DNA of 39,935 nucleotides. Origin: a virus. Its lineage: Duplodnaviria; Heunggongvirae; Uroviricota; Caudoviricetes. This document shows positions 15,982-38,024 of this stretch, piece after piece. The position numbers were made by a program, and so were the translations under genes. Location of the stretch: the IMG/VR virus record IMGVR_UViG_2623620502_000008. One strand, 5' to 3'. Position 1 is the stretch's first letter; each line of letters opens with the position of its first letter. A model generated the notes under the pieces. It was not told where the DNA came from and did not search any database. It worked only from the letters and a program-made list of their open reading frames with translations.

Positions 15982-16044
15982 CAGTTTCTACTTTGCATGT
16001 CTATGCTGCATGAAATCGCATGATCGTTTGAGGATCGTTTTTGC

Positions 16045-16073
16045 AAAAGCCCGCCAGAACTGGCGGGCTTTTG
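16045..16073. terminator. rho-independent terminator-like hairpin (A-tract/GC stem/T-tract)
   Basis: aaaagcccgccag-aa-ctggcgggcttttg, perfect 9-bp GC-rich stem flanked by A and T runs, downstream of the 3-gene cluster. Confidence 0.5.
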
Positions 16074-16117
16074 CGTAGAGCATGCATCTGCATGAAAACC
16101 ACTACATAAAGCGGGCA

Positions 16118-16136
16118 GGCGTGGCGGGGATACGAG
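16118..16136. other. candidate cos (cohesive-end) site of the prophage
   Basis: ggcgtggcggggatacgag; first 13 nt match my recollection of the P2/186 cohesive-end sequence (GGCGTGGCGGGGA...); located in the non-coding stretch between the late-accessory region and the portal side. Confidence 0.3.
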
Positions 16137-16224
16137 CGCGCGCATTGAGTTAAAATTTCTTGAGTTGATGAAAATAAGATGTATTTTAATTTGGCACAGA
16201 AAAACCTAATAACTCACAAGGATA

Positions 16225-17160
16225 ATGATAATAATGCAAATAGTTTCCATCATAAATTATAAAGGTGGCGTTGGTAAAACAACAGTTACGTCTAATTTAG
16301 CCGCTGAATTAGCATTCCGAGGAAAGAATGTTTTAGTTCTGGATATGGATGCTCAGGCAAGCCTGACATTTTCGTTTCTAACTCCCGATTATTGGGATGA
16401 ACATCTTAAAAATGAAAGGACCATTAAAAACTGGTTTGATTGTATTAGTCAGGGAGAGCAAACAATGCCTCTTTCGACTCTAAGAGTACGACCTGAACCT
16501 GTTAATAGTAGATTTGATAGAAAAGGTGGATGTTTGGATTTAATATCTTCCCACCTCGGGTTGATAAATGTTGATCTTGAGCTTGCGACTCTTCTAGGAG
16601 GGGCTAGCCCCAGTCAAACTCAAAAAAAATATCTTAAAGTTCATGGTAAACTTAGAGAGGAACTTCAAATACTAGCTGACGAAATGAATTATGATGTTGT
16701 TTTAATTGATTGTCCACCTAACTTTAATATCGTAACAAAAAATGCTTTGATTGCATCAGATAAGATTTTGATACCAGCAAAACCTGATTATTTGTCAACG
16801 CTAGGTATTGATTATTTAAAAAGAAGCGTAGATTCTCTAGTTACAGACTATAATTTCTATGCCGATAAAGATGAAGATTATGAAAGGGTATCTCCTGAGA
16901 TTCTCGGAGTAGTTTTTACTATGATTCAAATTCATTCAGAACAACCTATTGCCGCGCAAAGACAGTATATTGCGCAGACAAAACGTCTAGGTGTTCCCGT
17001 ATTTGATGCTATTTTTAGGGAGAATAAAACTATCTTTGCTGATGCCCCTAGAGATGGAATTCCTGTAGCATTAATTGGCTACTCGCATTCAACTCACTCT
17101 TCTATTGTAGGAGAGATTGAGGATTTTGTTGATGAATTCCTTCAAAAGATTGGAGAATAA
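16225..17160 (+). CDS. ParA/MinD/Soj-family P-loop ATPase (deviant Walker A)
   Basis: 311-aa ORF; NYKGGVGKTTVTSNLA deviant Walker A near N-terminus (likely start at ATG 16234), DMDAQ (A'-like) and VLIDCPP (Walker B-like); strongly AT-rich. Confidence 0.7.
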   Translation: MIIMQIVSIINYKGGVGKTTVTSNLAAELAFRGKNVLVLDMDAQASLTFSFLTPDYWDEHLKNERTIKNWFDCISQGEQTMPLSTLRVRPEPVNSRFDRKGGCLDLISSHLGLINVDLELATLLGGASPSQTQKKYLKVHGKLREELQILADEMNYDVVLIDCPPNFNIVTKNALIASDKILIPAKPDYLSTLGIDYLKRSVDSLVTDYNFYADKDEDYERVSPEILGVVFTMIQIHSEQPIAAQRQYIAQTKRLGVPVFDAIFRENKTIFADAPRDGIPVALIGYSHSTHSSIVGEIEDFVDEFLQKIGE

Positions 17161-17162
17161 AA

Positions 17163-17558
17163 GTGAGTAAAGCTAAAACTTTAACTGTGCTATTTCGTGA
17201 ATTACAAGATGCAGTTCTTGAACTCAATGAAGGGGAATTGGAAAAAATTATTTCAGGCGAGTATCAATTCGTCCTTAAGGTAGTTAAAAAACGTAATAGT
17301 ACTGGTGCAAAGATAAGTTCAGTAGATAATTTTAGCTATAACGAATTGCTTGTTTTACTTAACCAGTGTGAGTCAAGAGAACAAGGTTGCGAGCTTTTGT
17401 CGCGTGAGCTTAAGACTAAATCTGAGTTTGAAAAATTCGCTCGTCATGTCGAGGTCGCTGTAATGAAAAGCGATAAACTCGAGAAAATTAGAGATAATAT
17501 TATTGAGTCGACAGTAGGTGCTAAACTCCGTTCTGATGCTATTCAGAATAAAAAGTAA
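17163..17558 (+). CDS. hypothetical protein, partner of ParA-like ATPase (helical, charged)
   Basis: 131-aa ORF with GTG start 2 nt after ParA-like stop, ggagaa RBS; no recognisable motif. Confidence 0.45.
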   Translation: MSKAKTLTVLFRELQDAVLELNEGELEKIISGEYQFVLKVVKKRNSTGAKISSVDNFSYNELLVLLNQCESREQGCELLSRELKTKSEFEKFARHVEVAVMKSDKLEKIRDNIIESTVGAKLRSDAIQNKK

Positions 17559-17562
17559 TTAA

Positions 17563-17583
17563 TAGCCGCCAATTTGGCGGCTA
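17563..17583. terminator. bidirectional terminator-like perfect palindrome between convergent genes
   Basis: tagccgccaa-tt-tggcggcta, flanked by A-rich (left) and T-rich (right) sequence, between the 3' ends of 17163..17558 (+) and the portal gene (-). Confidence 0.5.
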
Positions 17584-17587
17584 TTTG

Positions 17588-18616
17588 TCATAGTTCATAG
17601 TTCGTAAAATTAATGACATTTTCGCCAAGCCACCTATTTAACTCTTCTAATCGTTTCTGAAGAGGCAATAGTTCATTACGTACAAAAACCTTACTAGCCT
17701 TCTCCACATCCCCAAAACCCCCAACATTATTCGGCATAATCCCCATCATCTGTGGCGGAACACGATGCGCGGCCATCATGTCATCACGACTCACGTTCTT
17801 GATGTTCAGAAATTCATCTTTCGCTGCGACTTCTGACAACGGGATGATCTGAAGTCCGTCCTTTTTGCCGTTAGGCGAGTACATAAACAGATTTCGGAAG
17901 TTGCCAGGGCCTTTGGCGCTTTTCATCGCATTGCGGAGGTTGTTCACATCCTCCTGGTTCTGCGCGGCATCGGTCATGTACATGATGAAGCCAGCATGAC
18001 TACCGTTAATGTAATACTTCCGGCGGAACAGCGTGGCGGACTCGTTGAGCAAAGCGGATGGGATGGCAGAAAGATAGCCGGGCAGGCCGTAGATCTCCTG
18101 ATTAATATCCGGTTCCATCAGATGAAAAATGCTGCCTTTCGTGAACTGATACGGCTGGGTTGTCATACCGTATTGCACAAACCAGTAGGTATCCAGGTCT
18201 AACCCGCGTCGGGTGTATTTCGCCAGGGCAGGTTCAAGGGCGATCACTTCACCGAAGCGGTTCGAGCGTTTCTCCAGGTAGGCGTTACCAAATACCAGAT
18301 AGTCCTGCACAAAACGTGAAAACGCCTGCTGGCTGAGCAGCGGATGAGGGATGTAGGTGCTGGTCAGTATGTTGCACTTTACGGCAATCGGTGAGCTGTG
18401 GTGCACGGCGGCGCGAAAGGTTCGCGCCAGCCCGTCGAAACTCACTGGTGGCTCATACCAGCGGTCCATCTGTACGCATTCCACATAGTCCAGTAATTCG
18501 CGGCGGTCCAGAACAGGAACGGGATCACCGAAGCTGAATGCTTCGGCTGAAGTCTGGTTTTTATGCAGGATCTGATTCGTCGCCGCAGCGCGGTTTTTCT
18601 TACTCTTTCCCATCAA
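17588..18616 (-). CDS. Q: portal protein (P2 gpQ-like)
   Basis: 342-aa ORF, overlaps terminase start by 4 nt; position and size as P2 Q. Confidence 0.85.
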   Translation of the reverse strand: MMGKSKKNRAAATNQILHKNQTSAEAFSFGDPVPVLDRRELLDYVECVQMDRWYEPPVSFDGLARTFRAAVHHSSPIAVKCNILTSTYIPHPLLSQQAFSRFVQDYLVFGNAYLEKRSNRFGEVIALEPALAKYTRRGLDLDTYWFVQYGMTTQPYQFTKGSIFHLMEPDINQEIYGLPGYLSAIPSALLNESATLFRRKYYINGSHAGFIMYMTDAAQNQEDVNNLRNAMKSAKGPGNFRNLFMYSPNGKKDGLQIIPLSEVAAKDEFLNIKNVSRDDMMAAHRVPPQMMGIMPNNVGGFGDVEKASKVFVRNELLPLQKRLEELNRWLGENVINFTNYEL

Positions 18617-20379
18617 AAAATCTCCACAATATTGCTGGTATTGGCGGACTCGCCCTGCAGCGGTTCGTTAAACAGTGCGTGCATTGTTGCCCAGGCCAGA
18701 TCGGCATGGCTGGCTTCTTCGCTGCGGCTGGCTTCATAGGTTGGGCGGTTGCCGCTGGCGGTGGTGGCGCGACGGATTGCCATAAATGACTGCGCTATGT
18801 CGGTGTGTCCGGCGTCAAACTCCAGACGACGGTGACTGATAATGTCGTAGGCCTTGAGTACCAGGGCGTTTTTAACGTTGGGGTTGTAGACAAACTCCCG
18901 GACGGCTGGAAAAAACGCTTTCACGTTCTCGTAAACCCCGTGGCCGACACCTGTCGAGTCGATGCCGATGTAGGTCACGTTGTACTGCTCGGTCAGTTTT
19001 TTGATGGCGTCAGCCTGGGCGCGGAAGTCCATCCCGCGCCACTGGTGACGCTCAAGAATGCGGAACTTACCACCCGGCACGGCTGGCGGTGCCACCACCA
19101 CGCATCCGGCGCTGTCGCCGTTTTGCGTACCTTTTGCCGGGTCATAACCGATCCACACTTCGCGCCAGCCAAACGGGCGCAGCGCCAGTGCATGAAAGTC
19201 GGTCCAGACTTCCCAACTGTCCACCATGCACGCCTGCAGCTCGCTGAGCGGAAACACGGACGCGAGATCGTCCACAAACTCGCACATCAGCAGGTTCTGG
19301 TATTCGTCCGGGCTGTACTCCATGCGTAGCTGGTCGAGGTCGAACAGGTTACAGCCGCCGCGCACCGCATCTTCCACGGTGACTATCTGGCGGTATTGCC
19401 CGTCTGCGCACAGCAGGCCGGGGGCCAGATTGCTGTGGGACAGGTCGATGTCCACCTTATCGGCTTTGTTGCGCCCACGGTTGAACAGTGCACCGGACCA
19501 GAACGGATAAGCACTGTGTGTCAGGCTGGATGGCGTGGAAAAATAGGTCTGTCGCCATTTCTTGTGAATAGCCATACCGGAAGCCACTTTGCGCAGTTCC
19601 TGGAATTTTGGTATCCAGAAATATTCATCCAGATACAGGTTGCCGTGGTAACTCTGGGCAGTGCGGGCATTGGTGCCGAGGAAGTAAAGCGTGGCCCCGT
19701 TAGGAAGCACCATCGGATCGCCTTTCAGCTCCACCTCCACTTCTTTGGCAAAGTCGATGATGTACTGCTTAAAGACGTGGGCCTGTGCCTTACTGGCGGA
19801 AAGGAAAATCTGGTTACGTCCGGTCAGCAGGGCGTCAATCAGGGCTTCACGGGCAAAATAGAAGGTCGCGCCGATCTGGCGTGACTTCAGCAGGTTGCGG
19901 ATGCGGTTGGTTTTTCCGGCTTCCCACCAGTGGCGCTGGTAGTTGAACATGGAGGAATGGAAGATTTCTTCCAGCTTCTCAATCTGTTCATCGGTGAAAA
20001 CATTCTTTTCAGGCTGACGGCGCGGGCCTTTGTTGCGGTTGGCGACGTTAGGGTTTAAGTCGGCTTCGTTGCCGCCATTGTTAAACTTGCCGATCCGCGC
20101 GTGGCGCTCAGACTGGCGCGCCAGCAGGTCAATCTCTTTGAAATCTTTCCCTTCTTTGTGCTCCTTCATGATGAGCTGGCAGTAGCGTGCGGCGGTGGTG
20201 AGCTGCATCTGATCCAGCGGCCCATAGTCACCCCACTTGTCGCGTTTTTTCCAGCTGTGAACGGTTGCAACTTTCTCGCCCAGCATTTCAGCAATGCGGG
20301 CGACGCGGTATCCCTGAAAGTACAGCAGCATGGCCTGCCGACGGGGATCGAGATCTGCGGGTGTCAGTGTGGTGTTCAT
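18613..20379 (-). CDS. P: terminase large (ATPase) subunit (P2 gpP-like)
   Basis: 588-aa ORF divergent from O-N-M capsid operon, as in P2. Confidence 0.85.
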   Translation of the reverse strand: MNTTLTPADLDPRRQAMLLYFQGYRVARIAEMLGEKVATVHSWKKRDKWGDYGPLDQMQLTTAARYCQLIMKEHKEGKDFKEIDLLARQSERHARIGKFNNGGNEADLNPNVANRNKGPRRQPEKNVFTDEQIEKLEEIFHSSMFNYQRHWWEAGKTNRIRNLLKSRQIGATFYFAREALIDALLTGRNQIFLSASKAQAHVFKQYIIDFAKEVEVELKGDPMVLPNGATLYFLGTNARTAQSYHGNLYLDEYFWIPKFQELRKVASGMAIHKKWRQTYFSTPSSLTHSAYPFWSGALFNRGRNKADKVDIDLSHSNLAPGLLCADGQYRQIVTVEDAVRGGCNLFDLDQLRMEYSPDEYQNLLMCEFVDDLASVFPLSELQACMVDSWEVWTDFHALALRPFGWREVWIGYDPAKGTQNGDSAGCVVVAPPAVPGGKFRILERHQWRGMDFRAQADAIKKLTEQYNVTYIGIDSTGVGHGVYENVKAFFPAVREFVYNPNVKNALVLKAYDIISHRRLEFDAGHTDIAQSFMAIRRATTASGNRPTYEASRSEEASHADLAWATMHALFNEPLQGESANTSNIVEIF

Positions 20380-20521
20380 GGCACAAACCTACAGCCTTGA
20401 ATGAAGGCTTTCCCCGCCTGCGGTTTGTGTGGTTGTCGGTACAAATACCGCGCATTGTTTCACTGCCCCCATCACCGCAACCATAAGGCTCCAGTAAGTT
20501 TTTTCTAACGGAGCACGGCTC

Positions 20522-21355
20522 ATGACAGTGAAAGCAAAGCGTTTTCGCATCGGGGTGGAAGGTGCCACCACCGACGGACGCGAAATCCAGCGTGAATGGC
20601 TGGAACAGATGGCAGCCAGCTACAACCCGGCGGTGTATACCGCGCTGATTAACCTTGAGCACATCAAGTCTTATCTGCCGGACAGCACCTTTAACCGCTA
20701 CGGCAAGGTGACGGCGCTGTTTGCTGAAGAAATCACGGAAGGTCCGCTGGCAGGCAAGATGGCGCTGTATGCCGACGTTGAGCCAACGGAGTCCCTGGTG
20801 GAACTGGTGAAAAAAGGCCAGAAATTATTCACCTCTATGGAGGTCAGCCCGAAGTTCGCTGATACGGGCAAAGCCTACCTGGTCGGCCTGGCTGCCACTG
20901 ATGACCCTGCCAGTCTGGGTACGGAAATGCTGACATTCAGCGCCAGTGCAGCCCATAACCCGCTGGCAAACCGCAAGCAGAATCCTGCCAATCTCTTTAC
21001 CGCTGCAGAGGAAACGGTGATCGAACTGGAAGAAATCCAGGACGACAAACCGTCCCTGTTTGCCCGCGTCACGGCGCTGTTTACCAAAAAAGAGCAGTCC
21101 GATGACGCCCGGTTCTCTGATGTGCATAAGGCCGTGGAGCTGGTCGCCACTGAGCAGCAGAATCTGAGCGCACGCACCGAAAAATCCCTGTCTGAGCAGG
21201 AAGAACGCCTGTCTGAGCTGGAGACTGCCCTGCAGGCACAGCAAACCGTCTTTAACGAACTGGTGGACAAGCTGAGTCATGAAGACAGCCGCCAGGACTA
21301 CCGCCAGCGTGCAACAGGCGGTAACGCCCCCGCTGACACTCTGACCAATTGCTGA
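20522..21355 (+). CDS. O: capsid scaffolding protein (P2 gpO-like)
   Basis: 277-aa ORF starting MTVKAKRFRIGVEGATTDGR; first gene of capsid operon. Confidence 0.8.
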   Translation: MTVKAKRFRIGVEGATTDGREIQREWLEQMAASYNPAVYTALINLEHIKSYLPDSTFNRYGKVTALFAEEITEGPLAGKMALYADVEPTESLVELVKKGQKLFTSMEVSPKFADTGKAYLVGLAATDDPASLGTEMLTFSASAAHNPLANRKQNPANLFTAAEETVIELEEIQDDKPSLFARVTALFTKKEQSDDARFSDVHKAVELVATEQQNLSARTEKSLSEQEERLSELETALQAQQTVFNELVDKLSHEDSRQDYRQRATGGNAPADTLTNC

Positions 21356-21371
21356 TGGAGCACAAAACCCG

Positions 21372-22430
21372 ATGAAGAAGAATACCCGCTTTGCTTTTAA
21401 CGCTTACCTGCAGCAGCTGGCGCGTCTGAACGGTGTGGCAGTTGAAGAACTGTCCAGCAAATTCACTGTGGAGCCGTCTGTGCAGCAGACGCTGGAAGAC
21501 CAGATCCAGCAGTCCGCCGCTTTCCTGACGCTGATTAACGTCACGCCAGTGACTGAGCAGTCCGGTCAGCTGCTGGGGCTGGGTGTTGGCAGCACCATTG
21601 CCGGAACCACTGACACCACCGCGAAAGAGCGTGAACCTGTCGATCCGACGCTGATGGTCGATGTGGAATATAAATGCGAGCAGACCAACTTTGACACGGT
21701 GCTGACCTACGCGAAGCTGGACCTGTGGGCGAAGTTTCAGAATTTCCAGGTGCGTATCCGTGACGCCATCGTGAAACGTCAGGCACTGGACCGCATCATG
21801 ATCGGCTTTAACGGCTTGAAGCGTGCGAAAACCTCCAACCGTAGTGAAAACCCGCTGCTGCAGGATGTGAACAAAGGCTGGCTGCAGAAAATCCGTGAGG
21901 ATGCACCGGATCATGTCATGGGCAGCACCACCACGGGCGGTGAAACCACACCGGGCGCGGTGAAAGTCGGGAAAGGTGGCGAATATGCCAACCTGGACGC
22001 CGTGGTGATGGATGCCGTCAATGAGCTTATCGACGTGGTCTACCAGGACGATGACGATCTGGTGGTGATTTGCGGCCGTGAACTGCTGTCTGACAAGTAT
22101 TTCCCGCTGGTCAACAAAGAGCAGGAAAACAGTGAAAAACTGGCTGCCGATATGATCATCAGTCAGAAGCGCATGGGGGGCCTGCAGGCCGTGCGTGCGC
22201 CGTTCTTCCCGCCGAATGCGCTGCTGATCACCCGTCTGGATAACCTGTCCATCTACTGGCAGGAAGATACCCGCCGCCGTTCAGTTATCGACAACCCGAA
22301 ACGTGACCGGATTGAAAATTTTGAATCCGTTAACGAAGCCTATGTGGTTGAGGACTACCGCTGCGCCGCACTGGTGGAAAACATCCAGATTGGCGACTTC
22401 AGCGCCGCCGCAGCAGAAACCGGAGCGTAA
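21372..22430 (+). CDS. N: major capsid protein (P2 gpN-like)
   Basis: 352-aa ORF following scaffold gene. Confidence 0.85.
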   Translation: MKKNTRFAFNAYLQQLARLNGVAVEELSSKFTVEPSVQQTLEDQIQQSAAFLTLINVTPVTEQSGQLLGLGVGSTIAGTTDTTAKEREPVDPTLMVDVEYKCEQTNFDTVLTYAKLDLWAKFQNFQVRIRDAIVKRQALDRIMIGFNGLKRAKTSNRSENPLLQDVNKGWLQKIREDAPDHVMGSTTTGGETTPGAVKVGKGGEYANLDAVVMDAVNELIDVVYQDDDDLVVICGRELLSDKYFPLVNKEQENSEKLAADMIISQKRMGGLQAVRAPFFPPNALLITRLDNLSIYWQEDTRRRSVIDNPKRDRIENFESVNEAYVVEDYRCAALVENIQIGDFSAAAAETGA

Positions 22431-22433
22431 TCC

Positions 22434-23084
22434 ATGAGCCTGAGTCCCGCACGGCAGCATCGCCTGCGCGTTCAGGCTGAACAGGCCGCCCGCGAGGGCG
22501 GCAGTGTTCGCCACGCGTCGGGCTATGACCTGATGCTGCTGCAACTGGCGGAAGACCGCCGCCGTCTCAAGGGCGTTCAGTCCACGGTGAAAAAAGCGGA
22601 AATCAAGGTGGAGCTGCTGCCGAAATATGCCGCCTGGGCGGAGGGCGTCCTGGCTGCCGGAGGCGCTCAACAGGATGACGTGCTGATGTACGTGATGCTG
22701 TGGCGCATTGATGCCGGAGATTATGCCGGGGCGCTGGAGATTGGGCGTCATGCCCTGCGTCATGGCTGGGTGATGCCGCTGGGTAACCGCAACGTGCAGA
22801 CCGTGCTGGCAGAGGAAATGGCAGACGCCGCGCAGAGCGCAATGTTTGCCGCCACCGGCTTTGATGCCGATCTGTTGCTGCAGACGCTGGAGCTGACAGA
22901 CGGTCTGGATATGCCGGACCAGTCACGGGCGCGTCTGCATAAAGCGATTGGCGCTGTCCTGAGTGAAAGCAACCCGGCTTCCGCCCTTAATCATCTCAAC
23001 CATGCGTTACAGCTCGATCCCCGCTGTGGCGTGAAAAAAGACAAACAGCAGCTGGAGCGCAGACTGCGCAATGATAGCCGCTGA
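22434..23084 (+). CDS. M: terminase small (endonuclease) subunit (P2 gpM-like)
   Basis: 216-aa ORF after N, as in P2. Confidence 0.75.
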   Translation: MSLSPARQHRLRVQAEQAAREGGSVRHASGYDLMLLQLAEDRRRLKGVQSTVKKAEIKVELLPKYAAWAEGVLAAGGAQQDDVLMYVMLWRIDAGDYAGALEIGRHALRHGWVMPLGNRNVQTVLAEEMADAAQSAMFAATGFDADLLLQTLELTDGLDMPDQSRARLHKAIGAVLSESNPASALNHLNHALQLDPRCGVKKDKQQLERRLRNDSR

Positions 23085-23179
23085 CAGAACGTGCCCCCGC
23101 GCACAGGCGGCACGGGGTGGCGAAAGGCACTGCCACATCAAAACCTCGTCCACCGCCCTCTATTTCAGGAGAAAGCAGC

Positions 23180-23644
23180 ATGAAGTTTGTTGCGCCAGAA
23201 CAGGCACCGGAACAGGCGGAAATCATCAGAAATACGCCGTTCTGGCCTGATGTGGACCTGTCGGAGTTTCGCAGTGTCATGCGCACTGACGGCACGGTGA
23301 CGCAGCCGCGTTTAAAGCAGGTTGCCCTGTCGGCAATTTCGGAGGTCAACGCTGAGTTGTATGAGTTTCGCAGACGTCAGCAGATGCTGGGGTATGCGTC
23401 GCTGGCTGAGGTTCCGGCGGAACTGCTGGACGGGAAAAGTGAGCGCATTCAGCACTATTTCAACGCGGTTTACTGCTGGGCACGCGCCATGCTCAACGAG
23501 CGTTATCAGGACTATGACGCCACGGCGTCCGGTGTGAAGCGGGGCGAGGAACTGGCGGAAGCAAGCGGTGATTTGTGGCGTGACGCCCGCTGGGCCATCA
23601 GCCGGGTGCAGGATGCGCCGCACTGCACAGTGGAGCTTATCTGA
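23180..23644 (+). CDS. L: head completion/stabilisation protein (P2 gpL-like)
   Basis: ATG at 23180 preceded by caggagaaag RBS (ORF track extends to 23117). Confidence 0.7.
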   Translation: MKFVAPEQAPEQAEIIRNTPFWPDVDLSEFRSVMRTDGTVTQPRLKQVALSAISEVNAELYEFRRRQQMLGYASLAEVPAELLDGKSERIQHYFNAVYCWARAMLNERYQDYDATASGVKRGEELAEASGDLWRDARWAISRVQDAPHCTVELI

Positions 23645-23847
23645 TGAAAGTGCGTGCGCATCAGTATGACACGGTGGACGCGCTTTGCTGGCGTCATTAC
23701 GGGCGCACGCAGGGTGTCACGGAGCAGGTACTGAAGGCAAATCCGGGGCTTGCCGAATACGGCCCCTTTTTACCTCACGGGCTGCAGGTGGAGCTGCCGG
23801 ACATTCTGACAACCACCACCGTGCAGACCGTCCAGCTATGGGACTGA
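23644..23847 (+). CDS. X: tail protein X (P2 gpX-like)
   Basis: 67-aa ORF; ...ANPGLAEYGPFLPHGLQVELPD... pattern typical of gpX. Confidence 0.7.
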   Translation: MKVRAHQYDTVDALCWRHYGRTQGVTEQVLKANPGLAEYGPFLPHGLQVELPDILTTTTVQTVQLWD

Positions 23848-23850
23848 ATT

Positions 23851-24066
23851 ATGACGCTTGAGCGAATCAGCGCCTTTATCACGTATTGCATCGCCGTCGT
23901 GCTGGCCTGGCTGGGCGATTTGTCCATCAAGGATGCCTCAACGCTGGGCGGCCTGATGATTGGTGTACTGATGCTGGCTATCAACTGGTACTACAAACAC
24001 AAAGCCTACCAGCTTCTGCGCGACGGGCAGATCTCGCGGGAGGACTATGAATCCATCAATCGTTAA
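23851..24066 (+). CDS. putative holin
   Basis: 71-aa ORF with hydrophobic segments, directly upstream of endolysin. Confidence 0.55.
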   Translation: MTLERISAFITYCIAVVLAWLGDLSIKDASTLGGLMIGVLMLAINWYYKHKAYQLLRDGQISREDYESINR

Positions 24067-24559
24067 ACGCTGCCTTGTCGGGGCCGTGCTGGCTATTGCT
24101 GCCACGCTGCCGGGTTTTCAGCAGCTTCACACCTCCGTGGAGGGGCTGAAACTGATTGCTGATTACGAAGGCTGTCGTCTGCAGCCGTATCAGTGCAGCG
24201 CGGGTGTCTGGACCGACGGCATTGGTAATACGTCGGGCGTCATTCCCGGCAAAACCATTACGGAGCGACAGGCAGCAGAAGGGCTGATCTCCAACGTGCT
24301 GCGTGTGGAGCGGGCGCTGGAAAGGTGTGTGAAGCAACAGCCGCCGCAGAAGGTGTATGACGCTGCGGTGTCGTTTGCCTTCAACGTGGGAACGGGCAAT
24401 GCCTGCAGTTCCACACTGGTGAAATTACTCAATCAGCGGCGCTGGGCGGATGCGTGCCGACAGTTGCCGCGCTGGGTTTATGTGAAAGGTGTTTTTAATC
24501 AGGGGCTGGATAACCGCCGTGCGCGGGAGATGGCCTGGTGCTTACAGGGAGCAAACTGA
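24047..24559 (+). CDS. K: endolysin, phage lysozyme family with N-terminal signal-anchor (SAR-type)
   Basis: Hydrophobic N-terminus (LVGAVLAIAATL) followed by EGCRLQPYQCSAGVWTDGIGNT (Glu-Asp-Thr catalytic triad spacing of T4-type lysozymes). Confidence 0.8.
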   Translation: MNPSIVKRCLVGAVLAIAATLPGFQQLHTSVEGLKLIADYEGCRLQPYQCSAGVWTDGIGNTSGVIPGKTITERQAAEGLISNVLRVERALERCVKQQPPQKVYDAAVSFAFNVGTGNACSSTLVKLLNQRRWADACRQLPRWVYVKGVFNQGLDNRRAREMAWCLQGAN

Positions 24560-24560
24560 A

Positions 24561-24938
24561 ATGAAAAAGAAAGTAATCAGCGGGCTGTTTCTGATGTTAT
24601 GGATGGCGCTGTTGATCGCAGCAATGGTGTATCCACAGGGGATTTTTCCGGTACTGGCAGCGTCCGGTGTCTGGGTAGCCTGTCTGCTGACATGGGCGGT
24701 AATTCCGGTAGCACTGGCTGCGTTAATTAAGAACGGCCCGCTCTGGCAGGAGTTGAGGGCATCTTTGCTAAAGACCATTACCCGAAAAGAAAACGTATTT
24801 ATCAGCTGGGTGATGCGATTGCTGATTGTCGTAAGTTTCGCCTGGACGGGGTGGGCTATTACCCTGGTCTTTTATCTGCTGACCGTTATTGCCTTCTGGA
24901 TGATCCGTAATCAGATTGCGCAACAGGTAGCAGCATGA
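24561..24938 (+). CDS. lysA: LysA-like membrane protein (lysis timing/antiholin-like)
   Basis: ATG 24561; about 126-aa protein with 4 hydrophobic segments after endolysin as in P2. Confidence 0.55.
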   Translation: MKKKVISGLFLMLWMALLIAAMVYPQGIFPVLAASGVWVACLLTWAVIPVALAALIKNGPLWQELRASLLKTITRKENVFISWVMRLLIVVSFAWTGWAITLVFYLLTVIAFWMIRNQIAQQVAA

Positions 24939-25363
24939 ACCGGTTGCTGCTGGTTGTGCTGGCGTTATTACTGGCGGCGCTGGGCTGGCAGACGTGGCGG
25001 CTGGCTGATGCCAGCCAGACCATCAGCACGCAGGCAGACGAGCTTCGGAGCAAAAGCCAGGCACTGGCAAAGAGCAACAGCCAGCTTATCAGCCTGTCCA
25101 TTCTGACTGAAACCAATAACCGGGAGCAGGCGCGGCTCTATGCCGAAGCAGAACAGACCAGTGTACTGCTGAGACAACGACAACACCGGATTGAGGAACT
25201 GAAACGTGAGAACGAGGATTTACGCCGCTGGGCTGATACTCCTTTGCCTGCTGACATTATCCGGCTGCGGGAACGCCCCACACTCACCCGAGGTGCAGCT
25301 TACCGTCAGTGGTTGTCCGCGAGTGACGCCGTGTCGGCTGGGGCAGGCAGCGCCGCGCACTAA
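24935..25363 (+). CDS. lysB: LysB, Rz-like inner-membrane spanin
   Basis: 142-aa ORF, N-terminal TM helix then coiled-coil region. Confidence 0.65.
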   Translation: MNRLLLVVLALLLAALGWQTWRLADASQTISTQADELRSKSQALAKSNSQLISLSILTETNNREQARLYAEAEQTSVLLRQRQHRIEELKRENEDLRRWADTPLPADIIRLRERPTLTRGAAYRQWLSASDAVSAGAGSAAH

Positions 25364-25466
25364 CGGTGACCTGAACGCGTTGCTGGATGAAACGGAGGCC
25401 GCCTGGGCGGTCTGTGCAGACAAAGTGGACATGATTATTGCGTGTCAGGAGCGAAACAGTGAATAA
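25206..25466 (+). CDS. lysC: LysC, Rz1-like outer-membrane lipoprotein spanin (embedded/overlapping reading frame)
   Basis: 86-aa ORF in alternate frame overlapping lysB 3' end; lipobox LTLSGC. Confidence 0.6.
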   Translation: MRTRIYAAGLILLCLLTLSGCGNAPHSPEVQLTVSGCPRVTPCRLGQAAPRTNGDLNALLDETEAAWAVCADKVDMIIACQERNSE

Positions 25467-25890
25467 ACCACAATCCCTGCGCCACGCCCTCAATAAAGCG
25501 GTGCCTTATGTCCGCAATAACCCGGACAAACTGCATCTGTTTGTGGATAACGGTTCGCTGGTTGCCACGGGGGCCAGCTCCATGTCATGGGAGTACCGCT
25601 ATACCCTGAACGTGGTGATAGAGGATTTCAGCGGCGACCAGAATCTGCTGATGGCCCCGGTTTTGCTGTGGCTGAGGGATAACCAGCCCGATGCCATCAA
25701 TAACCCGGCGTTACGGGAAAAACTATTCACCTTTGAGGTGGATATTCTGCGCAACGATGTCTGTGATATCAGCCTGAACCTGCAACTGACGGAGCGTGTG
25801 CTGGTCAGCACTGACGGTAGTGTGTCGAGCGTTGAAGCTATAGCGGAACCTGATGAACCTGAAGAAATGTGGACGGTGAAACGTGGCTGA
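25438..25890 (+). CDS. R: tail completion protein R
   Basis: 150-aa ORF in P2 position after lysis genes. Confidence 0.7.
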   Translation: MRVRSETVNKPQSLRHALNKAVPYVRNNPDKLHLFVDNGSLVATGASSMSWEYRYTLNVVIEDFSGDQNLLMAPVLLWLRDNQPDAINNPALREKLFTFEVDILRNDVCDISLNLQLTERVLVSTDGSVSSVEAIAEPDEPEEMWTVKRG

Positions 25891-26329
25891 ACTGCAGAAA
25901 GTGGACGACTGGCTGAGTGCCTTGCTGGCGAATCTGGAACCAGCCGCCAGAAGCCGCATGATGCGCCAGCTGGCGCAGGAACTGCGCCGGACACAGCAGC
26001 AGAACATCAGGATGCAACGCAATCCTGATGGCAGCAGCTATGAACCGAGGCGAGTAACAGCACGCAGTAAAAAAGGCCGTATCAAACGGCAGATGTTTAC
26101 AAAACTTCGCACCACAAAATACCTGAAAACCGCCGCCAGCGAGGATTCTGCCAGCGTGCAGTTTGAAGGTAAGGTGCAGCGCATTGCCCGCGTTCACCAT
26201 TATGGCCTGCGTGATCGCGTCAGCCGCAAAGGACCGGAGGTCCGTTACGCAGAGCGTCGCCTTCTGGGCGTAAATGATGATGTTGAGGCAATGACCCGCG
26301 ACATGATTCTGCAATGGTTGGCGGGGTGA
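25883..26329 (+). CDS. S: tail completion protein S
   Basis: 148-aa ORF (GTG start) following R. Confidence 0.7.
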   Translation: MAELQKVDDWLSALLANLEPAARSRMMRQLAQELRRTQQQNIRMQRNPDGSSYEPRRVTARSKKGRIKRQMFTKLRTTKYLKTAASEDSASVQFEGKVQRIARVHHYGLRDRVSRKGPEVRYAERRLLGVNDDVEAMTRDMILQWLAG

Positions 26330-26397
26330 TTTTTGTATCAGCAGTGATACAAGTTGCAGCACTGCCGCCTTTCTTCCCCTGATGGCAACCTTTCCCT

Positions 26398-26976
26398 ATG
26401 AACGCACAATTAACCGAAATCATGCGCCTTATCACCAATCTGATCCGCACTGGTGTAGTCACCGAAGTGGACCGGGAACACTGGCTTTGTCGGGTGAAAA
26501 CGGGCGACCTTGAAACCAACTGGATTAACTGGCTGACGCTGCGCGCGGGTAATGCCCGCACATGGTGGAAACCATCGGAAGGTGAGCAGGTGGTGCTGCT
26601 GAGTTTGGGCGGCAATCTGGAAACTGCCTTTGCGCTGCCCGCTGTCTATTCGAATCAGTTCGCACCACCGTCGACGTCGGCAGACGCCTGCGTGACAGAA
26701 CATCCTGACGGTGGCTGGTTTGAATACGAACCCGCCACCGGGCGCTGGTATGTCAGGGGCATCAAATCAATGGTCATTGAGGCCGCTGACAACATCACCA
26801 TGAAAACCAGTGAGTTTGTACTGGAGGCTGACCGCACGCGCATTAGCAGCGAAGTGGTGATCAATGGTGGTGTTACCCAGGGCGGCGGAGCGATGAGTTC
26901 TAACGGGATCGTGGTTGATGCGCATCAGCATACTGGCGTCCTGAAAGGCGGCGATACAACCGGAGGACCGGTATGA
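26398..26976 (+). CDS. V: baseplate assembly protein V (spike)
   Basis: 192-aa ORF; gene order V-W-J-I. Confidence 0.8.
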   Translation: MNAQLTEIMRLITNLIRTGVVTEVDREHWLCRVKTGDLETNWINWLTLRAGNARTWWKPSEGEQVVLLSLGGNLETAFALPAVYSNQFAPPSTSADACVTEHPDGGWFEYEPATGRWYVRGIKSMVIEAADNITMKTSEFVLEADRTRISSEVVINGGVTQGGGAMSSNGIVVDAHQHTGVLKGGDTTGGPV

Positions 26977-27332
26977 CGCTTTATAGCGGGATGAACAATA
27001 CCAGCGGCAAAGTCATTACTGATATTGACCATCTGCGCCAGTCGGTGCAGGACATTCTGCTGACGCCGCAGGGTAGCCGCATTGCTCGTCGTGAATATGG
27101 TTCCCTGCTGTCGGCACTGATAGACCAGCCACAAAATCCGGCGTTACGCCTGCAGGTCATGTCGGCAGTGTATGTGGCGCTGAGTCGCTGGGAGCCACGG
27201 CTGACGCTGGATTCCATCACCATCAACAGCAACTTTGACGGTTCTATGGTGGTGGAGCTGACCGGGCGGCGGAATAACGGTATGCCTGTTTCCCTTTCCG
27301 TATCAACAGGAGCAGAGAATGGCAGTGATTGA
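26973..27332 (+). CDS. W: baseplate protein W (gp25-like)
   Basis: 119-aa ORF overlapping V stop. Confidence 0.8.
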   Translation: MTLYSGMNNTSGKVITDIDHLRQSVQDILLTPQGSRIARREYGSLLSALIDQPQNPALRLQVMSAVYVALSRWEPRLTLDSITINSNFDGSMVVELTGRRNNGMPVSLSVSTGAENGSD

Positions 27333-28227
27333 CCTTTCGCAGTTGCCTGCGCCGCAGATTGTGGATGTGCCGGACTTTGAGACGCTGCTTGCCGAACGCA
27401 AGGCCGAATTTGTTGCGCTTCATCCGAAAGATGAGCAGGAAGCAGTGATCCGCACGCTGGAACTGGAATCTGAACCCGTCACCAAATTGCTTCAGGAGAA
27501 CGCTTACCGTGAGTTGCTTCTGCGCCAGCGCATTAACGAAGCCGCGCATGCTGTGATGGTGGCTTACGCGATGGGCGGCGATCTTGACCAGCTCGCTGCC
27601 AACTACAACGTGAAACGCCTGACGGTGACGCCTGCTGATAATGACGCTGTGCCACCCGTTGCGGCTGTGATGGAAAGCGATGAAGCGTTACGCCTGCGTG
27701 TGCCTGCAGCCTTTGAAGGGCTTTCTGTTGCGGGGCCAACTGCAGCTTATGAATTTCATGCCCGAAGCGCCGACGGTCGGGTGGCGGATGCCAGTGCAAC
27801 CAGCCCGGCACCTGCAGAGGTGGTGCTGACTGTCCTTAGCCGCGAAGGCGATGGAACAGCAGAAAAAGACCTGCTGGATGTGGTGGAGAACGCCCTGAAC
27901 AGTGAGAACGTCCGCCCGGTGGCTGACCGTCTGACGGTTCGCAGCGCAGAAATCATACCGTACCGCGTGGAAGCCACCATTTTTCTCTATCCGGGGCCGG
28001 AAGCAGAGCCGGTAATGGCAGCGGCAAAAGCCAGCCTGCAGAAGTACATCGCCAGTCAGACGCGGCTTGGTCGGGATATTCGCCGTAGCGCCATCTTTGC
28101 CGCCCTGCATGTTGAGGGTGTGCAGCGTGTGGAGCTGGCTTCGCCGCTGGCGGATGTGGTTTTGAACAAAACGCAGGCGGCATCATGTACGCAGTGGAGC
28201 GTAACCAACGGGGGAACGGATGAATAG
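27319..28227 (+). CDS. J: baseplate assembly protein J
   Basis: 302-aa ORF. Confidence 0.8.
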   Translation: MAVIDLSQLPAPQIVDVPDFETLLAERKAEFVALHPKDEQEAVIRTLELESEPVTKLLQENAYRELLLRQRINEAAHAVMVAYAMGGDLDQLAANYNVKRLTVTPADNDAVPPVAAVMESDEALRLRVPAAFEGLSVAGPTAAYEFHARSADGRVADASATSPAPAEVVLTVLSREGDGTAEKDLLDVVENALNSENVRPVADRLTVRSAEIIPYRVEATIFLYPGPEAEPVMAAAKASLQKYIASQTRLGRDIRRSAIFAALHVEGVQRVELASPLADVVLNKTQAASCTQWSVTNGGTDE

Positions 28228-28825
28228 TCTGCTGCCATCGGGGTCAACTTCACTGGAGCGCCGACTGGCGCAGACCTGTAGCGGGATTTCTGATCTGCAG
28301 GTGCCGCTGCGTGACTTGTGGAATCCGGCTACCTGCCCGGTCAGCTTCCTGCCTTATCTCGCCTGGGCGTTCTCTGTGGATCGCTGGGACGAAGGCTGGA
28401 CAGAAAGCGTCAAGCGCCAGGTGGTGAAGGATGCTTTTTATATTCATCAGCATAAAGGGACCACCAGTGCCGTGCGGCGGGTGGTGGAGCCGTTCGGCTT
28501 TCTGATCCGCATTATTGAGTGGTGGCAGACCGGAGAGGCACCGGGCACGTTTCGTCTGGATATCGGCGTGCAGGACCAGGGCATCACTGAAGATACCTAT
28601 CTGGAACTTGAGCGGCTGATAAGCGATGCCAAACCATGTAGCCGTCACATGATCGGCATGTCCATCAATCTGCAGACCAGCGGTCCGCATTGGGTGGGGG
28701 CCGCCAGCTATCTTGGCGAAGAAATCACGATCTATCCGTATATCAACGAAACAATTATTTCCGGCGGCACCGCGCATGAAGGTGGGGCGGTCCATGTTAT
28801 TGACACAATGAGAGTGAATCCATGA
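28220..28825 (+). CDS. I: tail protein I
   Basis: 201-aa ORF. Confidence 0.75.
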   Translation: MNSLLPSGSTSLERRLAQTCSGISDLQVPLRDLWNPATCPVSFLPYLAWAFSVDRWDEGWTESVKRQVVKDAFYIHQHKGTTSAVRRVVEPFGFLIRIIEWWQTGEAPGTFRLDIGVQDQGITEDTYLELERLISDAKPCSRHMIGMSINLQTSGPHWVGAASYLGEEITIYPYINETIISGGTAHEGGAVHVIDTMRVNP

Positions 28826-30552
28826 GCACAAAATTTTATACCCTGCTGACGGATATTGGCGCGGCGAAACTTGCCAGCGCCGCCGCGCTCGGTGTGCCTT
28901 TAAAAATTACCCATATGGCGGTCGGCGATGGCGGCGGAACATTGCCAACGCCGGACGCAAAGCAGACAGCATTGGTAAATGAGAAACGCCGGGCTGCGCT
29001 GAATATGCTCTATATCGACCCGCAGAACAGCAGCCAGATTATTGCCGAACAGGTGATCCCAGAAAACGAGGGCGGTTGGTGGATACGTGAAGTGGGCCTG
29101 TTTGATGAGTCCGGGGCATTGATTGCCGTGGGCAACTGCCCGGAAAGCTATAAGCCACAACTGGCTGAAGGCAGCGGGCGCACCCAGACCGTGCGCATGG
29201 TGCTGATTACCAGCAGTACGGACAATATCACCCTGAAAATCGACCCTGCTGTCGTGCTGGCAACCCGTCATTATGTAGATCAACAAATAGAAATTCATGA
29301 GCAATCGCGCCGCCATCCTTCTGCGTCTTTGACAGAAAAGGGATTTGTACGTCTGTATAGCGGTGTGGAAAGCAATGATGAAACAGTCGCTGCAACGCCA
29401 AAAGCAGTGAAAATAGCGATGGATAATGCCAGCGCCAGACTGGCAAAAGACCGCAATGGTTCTGATATTCCCAATCCGGCACTGTTTGTTCAGAATCTGG
29501 GATTGAAAACGACTGTTGATAAAGCTGCATCAGCGATTCAGCCAGGAGATTATGGAATTGGCCTGGCTTATCTGAAAACCATGGGAACCAAATCGCAATT
29601 TTTTGCTTATGGTACAGCTGTCGGATATCCAGAAGTGCCAACACATGGTGCTGGTTTCCAGGCCTGTTACAACGACAATCGACGTGCACAGATTTATGTC
29701 GCTAATGATGGCAAGATGTACTGTCGATTCAGCATGTTATCGAAAATTGCCGATGATGAAACACCGTGGAATCAGGTGTTCACCAGTGCACATTATCCAG
29801 AAGCATCAGTGAGTGTTAAAGGAATGGTGCAACTGGGGAACGATGTAAACAGCGTGTCAGAAAATGTTGCGGCGACATTGAAAGCGGTAAAAATTGCGAT
29901 GGACAACGCCAGCGCGAGACTGGCAAAGGACCGCAATGGTGCTGATATTCCTGACCCGACTTTGTTTATTCAGAATCTGGGACTTAAACCGACGGTTGAT
30001 AAGGCTGAAAGTGCTCTGCAACAGGGAGCATACGGAATCGGTAGCAATAATAACTACGAAATGGGTGAGGTTTCACAGTTTCTTGCATATTCAGGTAATG
30101 CAGATGAAGTGCCATCGAATGGTGCAGGTTTTCAGGCTGCGTATAACAAGAACAGACGCGCGCAGATTTTCATCACCGGAGCAGGGGAAATGTATCACCG
30201 TTTCAGCGGCTCTGATACGGTTAAAGACAATACAACACTATGGCGTCGGGGTGTTTGTGAAGATGAATTTTCATTTGGCAGCAATTATCACCGAATAACT
30301 GGCGGTGTGCTGAAGCAGTTTTTTAACAGTTATTTTTCCGGGGCAACTGGTGTGGTGAATAAAGAGTATCAGGTGAATTTTCCGACACCATTTGCCCGTC
30401 AGTGCTGGTACGTGATCCCCGTTTTCCGTTCGTCACACGGTGGGAGTGTTGAGGGGGTCGCCATTACAGCTATTACTGCAACTGGCTTTACTCTGAGCAT
30501 CACCGGAGATAACGGTGGATGGAATATTGGGTTTATTGCGGAGGGGGTCTGA
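28822..30552 (+). CDS. H: tail fiber protein H (contains an internal roughly 350-bp duplication)
   Basis: 576-aa ORF; N-terminal MSTKFYTLLTDIGAAKLA typical of P2-like tail fibers; duplicated block noted separately. Confidence 0.8.
   Translation: MSTKFYTLLTDIGAAKLASAAALGVPLKITHMAVGDGGGTLPTPDAKQTALVNEKRRAALNMLYIDPQNSSQIIAEQVIPENEGGWWIREVGLFDESGALIAVGNCPESYKPQLAEGSGRTQTVRMVLITSSTDNITLKIDPAVVLATRHYVDQQIEIHEQSRRHPSASLTEKGFVRLYSGVESNDETVAATPKAVKIAMDNASARLAKDRNGSDIPNPALFVQNLGLKTTVDKAASAIQPGDYGIGLAYLKTMGTKSQFFAYGTAVGYPEVPTHGAGFQACYNDNRRAQIYVANDGKMYCRFSMLSKIADDETPWNQVFTSAHYPEASVSVKGMVQLGNDVNSVSENVAATLKAVKIAMDNASARLAKDRNGADIPDPTLFIQNLGLKPTVDKAESALQQGAYGIGSNNNYEMGEVSQFLAYSGNADEVPSNGAGFQAAYNKNRRAQIFITGAGEMYHRFSGSDTVKDNTTLWRRGVCEDEFSFGSNYHRITGGVLKQFFNSYFSGATGVVNKEYQVNFPTPFARQCWYVIPVFRSSHGGSVEGVAITAITATGFTLSITGDNGGWNIGFIAEGV
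29385..30210. repeat. internal direct duplication within tail fiber gene H (two roughly 350-bp copies, about 29385..29735 and 29865..30210)
   Basis: Nucleotide and protein blocks recur, e.g. AATPKAVKIAMDNASARLAKDRNGSDIPNPALFVQNLGLKTTVDKA vs AATLKAVKIAMDNASARLAKDRNGADIPDPTLFIQNLGLKPTVDKA, each followed by ...NGAGFQA.YN.NRRAQI... Confidence 0.7.
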
Positions 30553-30986
30553 TGAGTTATTTTTACAGTCCATCAAGAAATGCATTTTATAACAGTGAAC
30601 TGAAATCTGATTATTACGATGCTCTCGATGCGTGGCCGGATGACTGTATTGAGGTAAGTGATGCAGTCTATCAGGAGTTTTATCTTGGTTATCGGGAAGG
30701 GTACAAAATGGTTGCAGGCACTGATAACCAGCCATCATGGGAAGAACGTCCACCATTGACCCATGAGGAACAGGTGGAACAGGCAGAAATGATGAAACAG
30801 ATGCGCATTAATGAGGCTAACAACCTGATTAATGAAAAACAATGGCCATCAAAATTACAGCTTGGCAGGCTGAACGAAATGGAGACAACCAGATTTAATG
30901 CGATGCTGGATTATCTTGAGTTACTTGAAAATATTAATGTAAGTGATGCCCCGGATATAGTCTGGCCTTTATCACCAGAAGTCTGA
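30552..30986 (+). CDS. G: tail fiber assembly protein (gpG-like chaperone)
   Basis: ATG at 30552 overlapping H stop; about 144 aa. Confidence 0.6.
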   Translation: MSYFYSPSRNAFYNSELKSDYYDALDAWPDDCIEVSDAVYQEFYLGYREGYKMVAGTDNQPSWEERPPLTHEEQVEQAEMMKQMRINEANNLINEKQWPSKLQLGRLNEMETTRFNAMLDYLELLENINVSDAPDIVWPLSPEV

Positions 30987-31118
30987 ATACATCCCCGCGT
31001 CTGCGGGGATTCCTGTATCCGCCGTTGTGCCATTTTTCATACAAACCACATAACGTGCATCCTGCTCGTATCAACCAGAACATAGGCAGACCCCCTCTAC
31101 TACCGGAGAGACTGCCTT

Positions 31119-32291
31119 ATGGCTCAGGATTACCACCACGGGGTGCGCGTTGTTGAAGTCAACGAAGGCACCCGATCCATTACCACGGTGAGCACCGCCA
31201 TCGTGGGTATGGTCTGCACGGGCGATGATGCCGATGCAAAAATGTTTCCTCTTAATAAACCCGTGCTGATCACTGATGTGCTGACTGCCAGCGGTAAAGC
31301 GGGTGAGTCCGGCACGCTGGCCCGTTCGCTGGATGCCATCGCTGACCAGGCAAAACCCGTGACCGTTGTTGTGCGTGTGCCGCAGGGGGAAACGGAAGAA
31401 GAAACCACGACCAATATCATCGGCGCAGTGACTGCTGAAGGTAAAAAAACAGGCATGAAAGCCCTGTTATCTGCCCAGACACAGCTCGGCGTTAAACCGC
31501 GCATTCTCGGCGTACCTGGTCACGATAACAAAGCCGTTGCGACTGAGTTGCTGAGCGTGGCGCAAAGCCTGCGTGGGTTTGCCTACCTGTCAGCGTATGG
31601 TTGCAAGACGGTGCAGGAAGCAATCACTTACCGTGAAAACTTCAGCCAGCGCGAAGGGATGCTGATCTGGCCTGACTTTACTGGCTGGGACACGGTGCTG
31701 AATGCCGAAGCAACGGCTTATGCCACCGCCCGTGCGCTTGGTCTGCGCGCCAAAATTGACGAGCAGACCGGATGGCACAAAAGCCTGTCTAACGTGGGCG
31801 TGAACGGTGTCACCGGAATTTCTGCAGATGTGTTCTGGGATCTGCAGGATCCGGCAACCGATGCAGGTCTGCTGAACCAGAACGACGTCACCACGCTTGT
31901 GCGCAAGGACGGTTTCCGCTTCTGGGGTTCCCGCTGTCTGAGCGATGATCCGCTCTTTGCCTTCGAAAACTACACCCGCACGGCGCAGGTGCTGACGGAC
32001 ACAATGGCAGAAGCGCACATGTGGGCGGTGGACAAACCGCTGAATCCGTCGCTGGCCCGCGACATTATCGAAGGTATCCGCGCCAAAATGCGCAGCCTGG
32101 TCAGTCAGGGGTATCTCATTGGTGGTGATTGCTGGCTGGATGAGTCGGTGAACGACAAAGACACGCTGAAAGCCGGAAAACTCACCATCGACTATGACTA
32201 CACGCCAGTGCCGCCACTTGAAAATCTGATGCTGCGCCAGCGCATCACCGATCAGTACCTGGTGAATTTTGCCAGCCAGGTTAGCGCGTAA
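31119..32291 (+). CDS. FI: tail sheath protein FI
   Basis: 390-aa ORF starting [13 protein letters not shown]... Confidence 0.85.
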
Positions 32292-32300
32292 GGGGACAAC

Positions 32301-32816
32301 ATGGCTTTACCACGCAAATTAAAACACCTGAACCTGTTTAACGACGGGAACAACTGGCAGGGGATCGTTGAGTCGCTGACGCTGCCGAAATTCACCCGCA
32401 AATATGAGAAGTATCGCGGCGGCGGAATGCCGGGTGCAGTGGATGTGGATCTGGGGCTTGATGACAGTGCGCTGGACACAGAATTTTCCATTGGTGGTAC
32501 TGAACTGCTGCTGTTTAAACAGATGGGCAAAGCCACGGTGGATGGCATCCAGTTGCGCTTTACCGGCTCTATCCAGCGTGATGATACCGGGGAAGTACAG
32601 TCCGTGGAGCTTGTGGTGCGTGGACGTCACAAAGAAGTGGACTCCGGCGAGTGGAAGACGGGCGAAAGCAACACCACCAAAGTGACCAGTACCAACAGCT
32701 ACGCGAAGCTGACTATCAATGGTGAGGTGCTCTATGAAGTGGACCTTATAAACATGGTGGAAATTGTGGACGGTGTGGACCTGATGGAAGCGCACCGCAA
32801 CGCCCTTGGCCTCTGA
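32301..32816 (+). CDS. FII: tail tube protein FII
   Basis: 171-aa ORF starting MALPRKLKHLNLFNDG... Confidence 0.85.
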   Translation: MALPRKLKHLNLFNDGNNWQGIVESLTLPKFTRKYEKYRGGGMPGAVDVDLGLDDSALDTEFSIGGTELLLFKQMGKATVDGIQLRFTGSIQRDDTGEVQSVELVVRGRHKEVDSGEWKTGESNTTKVTSTNSYAKLTINGEVLYEVDLINMVEIVDGVDLMEAHRNALGL

Positions 32817-32870
32817 TGTATCTGAACGGCGCGGGATACCGCGCCAGAACCCAATTTACAGGACAGCAAA

Positions 32871-33173
32871 ATGAGCGATAAGCAGACTGAAAAGACCATT
32901 CAACTGGACACCCCCATCATGCGCGGTAAAACAGAAATTACCGAAATTGTGCTGCGTAAACCGCAGTCCGGTGCGCTGCGCGGTACACGCCTGCAGGCCA
33001 TTATGGATATGGATGTGAACGCGATGATGACCGTGATCCCCCGCATTTCCAGTCCGGCACTGACTGCACAGGAAATTGCAGAGATGGACCCGGCAGACCT
33101 CACTGCCATGTCGGTTGAGGTTGTCACTTTTTTGTTGAAGAAGTCGGTGCTTGCCGGTTTACCGACAGCCTGA
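32871..33173 (+). CDS. E: tail assembly chaperone E
   Basis: 100-aa ORF upstream of tape measure gene. Confidence 0.75.
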   Translation: MSDKQTEKTIQLDTPIMRGKTEITEIVLRKPQSGALRGTRLQAIMDMDVNAMMTVIPRISSPALTAQEIAEMDPADLTAMSVEVVTFLLKKSVLAGLPTA

Positions 33174-33307
33174 CGGTTGACGATCTGGTGGCAGATATCG
33201 CCACCATTTTTCACTGGCCGCCATCCGTTACTGACGTTATGCCGCTGACCGAAGTGCTGGAATGGCGGTATAAAGCGATTCAGAGAAGCGGGGCCAACGA
33301 TGAGTGA
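32871..33307 (+). CDS. E+E' extended chaperone produced by -1 programmed ribosomal frameshift (inferred)
   Basis: Slippery heptamer TTTTTTG at 33128..33134 inside E; the -1 frame stays open to a TGA at 33305..33307, overlapping the T start. Confidence 0.45.
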
Positions 33308-37956: not shown

Positions 37957-38024
37957 AGTGTTCTCAATATTGATATTTTGTGTATCATTACAATGATTCT
38001 GATAGCAAAGGTAGGGATCTGGAT

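Follow-up and report, generated by a model that had tools for sequence, protein, structure and literature searches.

A ParA-type ATPase and a small helical adaptor form a two-gene cargo unit in the cos-portal interval of a P2-like prophage

The two genes that lie between the cos region and the portal gene of this 186/P2-like prophage form a self-contained cargo unit, acquired horizontally, of the cos-proximal gpA-gpQ hotspot, and their operon is not a plasmid-type partition locus. It codes for a ParA/Soj-type ATPase and for a small partner, which is an adaptor of a new, undescribed all-helical family. The pair represents a large, uncharacterised and horizontally mobile family that is widespread in chromosomes and in the cargo slots of mobile elements. 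As to its function, a role in conflict between mobile elements, i.e. keeping out incoming phages or other replicons or defending against them, is the candidate that we tentatively favour, with a confidence somewhat short of even. The relevant features of the window, by which we mean the whole stretch of 39,935 nucleotides analysed, are the following.

16043..16074, no strand assigned: upstream hairpin, a GC-rich perfect inverted repeat with 15-bp arms, a 2-nt loop and A and T runs on either side
16100..16158, no strand assigned: segment homologous to the cos region of P2-type phages, with 97-100% matches to P2-like phages
16234..17160, + strand: ParA/Soj-type ATPase, 308 aa (AAA_31, 7.6e-36; CbiA, 2.2e-19; RefSeq 'ParA family protein', WP_063123439)
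16261..16284, + strand: deviant Walker A motif KGGVGKTT, residues 10-17, with the signature Lys10 and the catalytic Lys15
16696..16719, + strand: Walker B region VVLIDCPP (Asp159), with D159 and C160-P162 invariant
17163..17558, + strand: partner (adaptor), 131 aa, undescribed family, no family or PDB match
17508..17552, + strand: conserved C-terminal helix of the partner, residues 116-130, STVGAKLRSDAIQNK
17561..17585, no strand assigned: bidirectional hairpin terminator with 12-bp perfect arms, also called by a terminator scanner
17588..18616, - strand: portal gene Q, the right edge of the cargo slot (Phage_portal, 1.3e-18; RefSeq annotation)

The operon comprises two open reading frames on the + strand, 16225..17160 and 17163..17558. 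The initial annotation had the ATPase begin at the upstream ATG at 16225; the frame is borne out, but the RefSeq start and the N-termini of orthologues place the start codon at 16234, with a protein beginning MQIVS. This start codon is the sole correction to what had been observed at the locus. The other elements of that description hold. The partner gene begins 2 nt after the ParA stop codon, with a GTG start and a GGAG 7 nt upstream, the deviant Walker A motif is present in a protein whose ParA family is confirmed by Pfam and PHROG profiles, and hairpins flank the operon on both sides. It is also AT-rich, with a GC content of 0.358 vs 0.553 for the phage structural genes at 18000-38000. The upstream hairpin terminates the preceding cargo operon and sets it apart from the cos and ParA unit, and the downstream hairpin lies where the partner gene and the portal gene converge. 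That the ParA-partner pair forms a separate transcription unit is well supported; a promoter scan found no consensus sigma-70 site upstream of 16234.

The placement of the operon between cos and the portal gene, first proposed from the letters alone, is confirmed by database matches on both sides: positions 16100-16143 match the annotated 'putative cos site' of the P2-like phage Cartapus, and the portal gene matches Phage_portal. The cos-homologous segment is conserved in a Klebsiella remnant as well. Comparison with P2-like relatives, which had been suggested as a check, showed that the pair is not universal in the cos-Q slot. It is present in six of the ~1,245 E. coli genomes having the flank and in eight of 5,426 E. 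coli genomes overall, a DNA-level search of E. coli genomes returned no further match, and the cos-Q interval of other P2-like phages holds different cargo. The view of the operon as a moron therefore stands, since it is a separate, AT-rich unit that is rare at this position and whose slot is filled by other cargo in relatives. This slot falls inside the published gpA-gpQ region, a cos-proximal hotspot of P2-like phages with validated defence systems (PMC9122126).

The pair was catalogued in that survey as system 129 of the P2 gpA-gpQ loci, in which both WP_063123439 and WP_000030309 are listed and in which system 129 combines with different upstream cassettes (Rousset et al. 2022, PMC9122126). 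The operon of the window belongs to this system, with the same proteins at the same locus, and its partner has exactly the sequence given in Table S5B for protein 2 of that system. For the ParA of system 129, however, the survey prints the sequence of system 110 (PMC9122126). The hotspot ParA of system 110, which lies beside RelA_SpoT, is a different protein, being only 24% identical to ours. The DUF5855 label of the system 129 entry was not reproduced with current Pfam, and no sign that the pair had been cloned or tested was found in the text and supplements of Rousset et al. (PMC9122126).

Both its motifs and its Soj-like alpha/beta fold place the ATPase in the ParA/Soj branch of the ParA/MinD (SIMIBI) ATPases. 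In addition to its Pfam AAA_31 score (7.6e-36), it matches PHROG 164, 'ParA-like partition protein', at 8.6e-47. The KGGVGKTT motif is invariant across 30 orthologues, as are the Walker A' and Walker B aspartates D37, D39 and D159, and the mean identity among orthologues is 63-75%. The AF2 model (pLDDT 85) matches ParA and Soj structures with a Foldseek E of ~1e-14 and a TM of ~0.8, the best PDB fold matches being ParA 8ray, Soj 2bek/1wcv, delta 2oze and McdA 6non. The deviant Walker A with its signature lysine and the Walker A' and B aspartates are likewise found in Soj-Spo0J, ParF-ParG, delta-omega and McdA-McdB, and the fold is common to the family (TM ~0.8 to 8ray, 2bek, 2oze and 6non). 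Shared with ParA-Soj systems are also the order of genes, an ATPase followed by a small co-translated partner, and the presence in the adaptor of a short, highly conserved motif that probably contacts the ATPase. Our protein differs from the solved ParAs, to which it is only 20-25% identical, and has ~55 residues more than Soj.

As for the partner, no match was found in Pfam, NCBIfam, PADLOC, PHROGs or PDB sequences, nor did a profile of its family match any PDB sequence; the structure search in BFVD returned one 65-aa phage protein of unknown function. The AF2 model is all-helical (pLDDT 80.5), and RHH, HTH and ParB features were not found, in agreement with the initial annotation of a helical protein without a ParB/HTH signature. 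In this protein, a variable N-domain spans residues 1-42 and a disordered basic linker residues 43-56; the C-domain that follows is helical. In an alignment of 34 family members, Gly119 and Ser124 are invariant and Arg123 is near-invariant. Mean pairwise identity reaches 0.68 in the C-terminal helix and 0.28 in the N-domain, with 0.63 for ParA. This domain-wise conservation fits an adaptor role, and we infer that the C-terminal helix may be a ParA-contact or ATPase-stimulating motif. The basic linker and weak SAP/HeH-like fold matches are compatible with putative DNA binding. Unlike the adaptors of the ParA-Soj systems named above, the partner has no RHH, HTH or ParB domain, and it carries its conserved motif at the C-terminus instead of the N-terminus.

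The family numbers 938 or more partner clusters and no fewer than 3,900 ParA clusters. An orthologous ParA gene lies directly upstream of the partner gene in all 20 checkable genome loci, and among the loci checked this adjacency spans Proteobacteria to Firmicutes. The ParA gene always precedes the ~130-aa adaptor gene, and the two are coupled or overlapping. In 27 of 29 loci, some of them flanked by housekeeping genes, the pair has a higher AT content than the flanking DNA. No conserved third gene was found beside it outside Enterobacterales, and its upstream regions showed no conservation between clades. In tblastn searches the partner was found in none of 72,556 plasmids and none of 50,697 phage genomes. 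The one plasmid orthologue of the ParA is a fragmented pseudogene of the megaplasmid pMBL287, followed by an open reading frame, and the best full-length plasmid ParA matches are ~31% identical vs 46-93% for true orthologues.

The genomic contexts of the pair are diverse. In a P4-like satellite of Kosakonia, it has Ogr_Delta on one side and the integrase on the other, an integrase-adjacent slot that we equate with the P4 hotspot next to cos described by Rousset et al. (PMC9122126). A P4-type integrase also adjoins the pair in E. coli XH988, Salmonella and Vibrio. In decayed P2 remnants of Klebsiella the pair is intact in most cases, beside an OLD-family nuclease gene and CI, and Enterobacter P2 remnants likewise retain it; some prophage remnants keep the pair without genes for excision or replication. 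One Klebsiella genome has its ParA split into two ORFs, the following reading frame being still open. In Vibrio, the pair is found immediately downstream of QatABCD in three different flanks; it adjoins GmrSD_N at one locus and a type IIG restriction-methylase at another, and PtuB, RT_UG29 and CapP occur at most 4.5 kb away in other loci. Altogether, as a raw count, a defence gene (OLD, Qat, GmrSD_N, type IIG RM, Cap4 or AAA_15/21, PtuB, RT_UG29 or CapP) is present within ~5 kb in ~9-10 of ~35 distinct contexts, and many contexts have none. In five mobilizable elements of Pectobacterium, Pantoea and Tatumella the pair is conserved alongside the relaxase backbone, and in an E. coli/Salmonella island it is again conserved with the backbone. 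In some integrative mobilizable elements, it looks like backbone more than cargo. Many other loci show no mobile-element hallmark within ~5 kb and have housekeeping genes as flanks, for example valS, glmS, the thi operon or ubiA/hda.

The initial annotation had offered a defence or exclusion module as one of two readings, and its location and some of its neighbourhoods make this plausible. A role in conflict or defence is supported by the nature of the unit, which is separate, AT-rich and rare in a variable slot of a defence hotspot. The pair is found in experimentally validated hotspots of this kind, namely P2 gpA-gpQ and, in Kosakonia, the P4-like integrase-adjacent slot. The latter slot, the retention of the pair in P2 remnants and its Qat, GmrSD and type IIG neighbours point to the same role, as do the foreign composition in 27 of 29 loci and the invariable adjacency of the two genes. 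The ATPase-dependent growth arrest caused by ParA-Shi provides a precedent. In ICEclc, the ParA of a mobile element and a small non-ParB protein, Shi, together arrest the host cell, and the arrest needs the ParA ATPase motifs; Shi has 85 aa and is HicA-like, and parB comes next (PMC6812849). Pairs of a ParA and a small partner therefore need not be partition systems. Like ParA-Shi, our pair consists of the ParA of an integrative element directly followed by a small non-ParB protein; unlike Shi as described in that paper, the partner has 131 aa and is all-helical, and no parB lies downstream.

A mechanism can be envisaged along these lines. The pair would be expressed from the prophage as an independent unit, and ATP-bound ParA dimers would sit on the nucleoid, as with other ParA/Soj proteins. 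The C-terminal helix of the adaptor (Gly119, Arg123 and Ser124) would dock on ParA and trigger ATP hydrolysis, and the variable N-domain, the linker and the SAP/HeH-like segment might link the ATPase cycle to a target. Foreign DNA could in this manner be mislocalised or immobilised by the ParA-adaptor system. Alternatively, ParA might drive the arrest of the infected cell, as with ParA-Shi of ICEclc.

Other observations argue against defence. No recognisable effector was found in the pair, i.e. no nuclease, transmembrane protein or NAD-related chemistry. An identity of 63-75% makes this ParA unusually conserved for an arms-race gene, the proportion of contexts with a defence gene amounts to a modest enrichment at best, and the backbone-like conservation in the Pectobacterium, Pantoea and Tatumella elements and in the E. 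coli/Salmonella island points away from such a role. In a PADLOC check, proposed along with the defence reading, no model matched beyond the P-loop. The matches in PADLOC-DB v2 were restricted to the P-loop of the candidate PDC-M28B (2.8e-09, 34 residues), with none for the partner. What the pair has in common with the systems of that database is its habitats, the P2/P4 hotspots and the vicinity of Qat, GmrSD, type IIG RM and OLD. Literature searches returned nothing relevant on ParA-based anti-phage systems. One specific version, which we regard as improbable, is an effector-less immune or exclusion system: the variable N-domain would sense invading DNA, or else a replicon-borne factor, after which ParA would hold the invader in place, disturb its segregation or lock the nucleoid of the infected cell. 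Incompatibility with ParABS-dependent extrachromosomal replicons would then explain the near-total absence from 72,556 plasmids. If this were true, the pair would act against plasmids or phage-plasmids and integrated elements alone would carry it.

The main rival to defence, possible if rather doubtful, is that the pair serves the mobile element itself, for its maintenance or for control of the host. The pair might tether or segregate an excised circle, aid the relaxosome or restrain host division while the element is active, and P2 and P4 elements would have acquired it from integrative islands. Soj segregates or tethers the excised circular form of PAPI-1-type ICEs, and VirC1/VirC2 assist relaxosome function. 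The arrangement of a ParA-type ATPase with a small adaptor downstream is canonical for segregation systems, and the P4-type integrases next to the pair in E. coli XH988, Salmonella, Vibrio and Kosakonia, the conservation with a relaxase backbone in five elements and the basic linker and weak SAP/HeH-like matches of the partner are all in line with maintenance, as is ParA-Shi (PMC6812849). Against it, many loci lie amid housekeeping genes with no mobile hallmark in ~5 kb, and the pair is kept in remnants that have lost excision or replication genes. Repeat arrays were not found in eight loci, the pair is absent from the plasmids searched, and in P2 and P4 elements it is rare and fills a variable cargo slot rather than the backbone.

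The pair could also be a selfish addiction module, which we find quite unlikely. By itself ParA would harm the cell, either by binding the nucleoid or by blocking division, and the partner would neutralise it; loss would be costly and the host would gain no benefit. The persistence of an intact foreign cassette as a stand-alone unit in many genomes, its retention in decaying prophages and the tight translational coupling would fit this idea, with ParA-Shi toxicity as a precedent (PMC6812849). The absence of the cassette from 72,556 plasmids does not fit. Addiction modules are normally abundant on plasmids. Moreover, ParA is broken in one Klebsiella genome and in pMBL287 while the next frame is open, an order of decay unexpected, if conceivable, for a toxin and its antidote.

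Yet less probable is a host-cargo positioning system of the McdAB kind, or a nucleoid-associated housekeeping accessory, that hitch-hikes in mobile elements. Such a role has parallels among ParA/MinD ATPases, which together with small adaptors specific to each family position many non-DNA cargos; one of the best fold matches is McdA, our ParA is highly conserved and some loci lie amid housekeeping genes. However, no conserved third gene or cargo operon adjoins the pair, its composition is foreign in nearly all genomes, its occurrence within species is sporadic (eight of 5,426 E. coli genomes), and it recurs in the cargo slots of mobile elements.

A type I partition locus would combine a centromere-binding partner of RHH, HTH or ParB fold, a centromere-like repeat array beside the operon and residence on autonomous replicons, and none of these was found. 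Scans of eight loci (the window and seven others) for iterons or repeat arrays returned only short two-copy chance repeats, although a single palindrome could escape such a scan. The pair thus differs from ParA-Soj partition systems by having no centromere repeats and by being essentially never on plasmids, and the alternative identity raised initially, a plasmid parAB with iterons, was not found in the plasmid searches or the repeat scan. Classical plasmid-type partition is rejected on the plasmid searches, the phage searches and the repeat scans. The suggestion of a partition system hinting at an episomal lifestyle is not supported, given the absence from plasmids, the lack of iterons and the E. 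coli copies, all eight of which are chromosomal. Rousset et al. speculate that hotspot partition systems could permit plasmid maintenance, but their frequent 'plasmid partitioning system' is StbA plus Plasmid_stab_B and not this operon (PMC9122126). Hence a classical type Ib system letting the prophage live as an episome, for which the ParA fold and motifs and the small downstream gene would speak, is largely refuted and most improbable, given also the partner without RHH, HTH or ParB features, the low identity of plasmid ParAs, the pseudogene as the only orthologous plasmid copy and the integrated state of a prophage with integrase and CI.

ParA-type ATPases are textbook motors of DNA segregation. 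Here, a very large and strongly conserved ParA subfamily has its own undescribed adaptor family, and the pair behaves as mobile cargo: it has a foreign composition, is sporadic, occurs in P2/P4 hotspots and near restriction and Qat genes, and is almost never on plasmids. Both genes are small and self-contained, and they are amenable to direct testing. If the pair serves defence or exclusion, it would add a nuclease- and toxin-free mechanism to bacterial immunity and would make sense of an entry that recurs without explanation in surveys of hotspots. If it serves the mobile elements themselves, integrative elements would have in it a widespread device for maintenance or host control.

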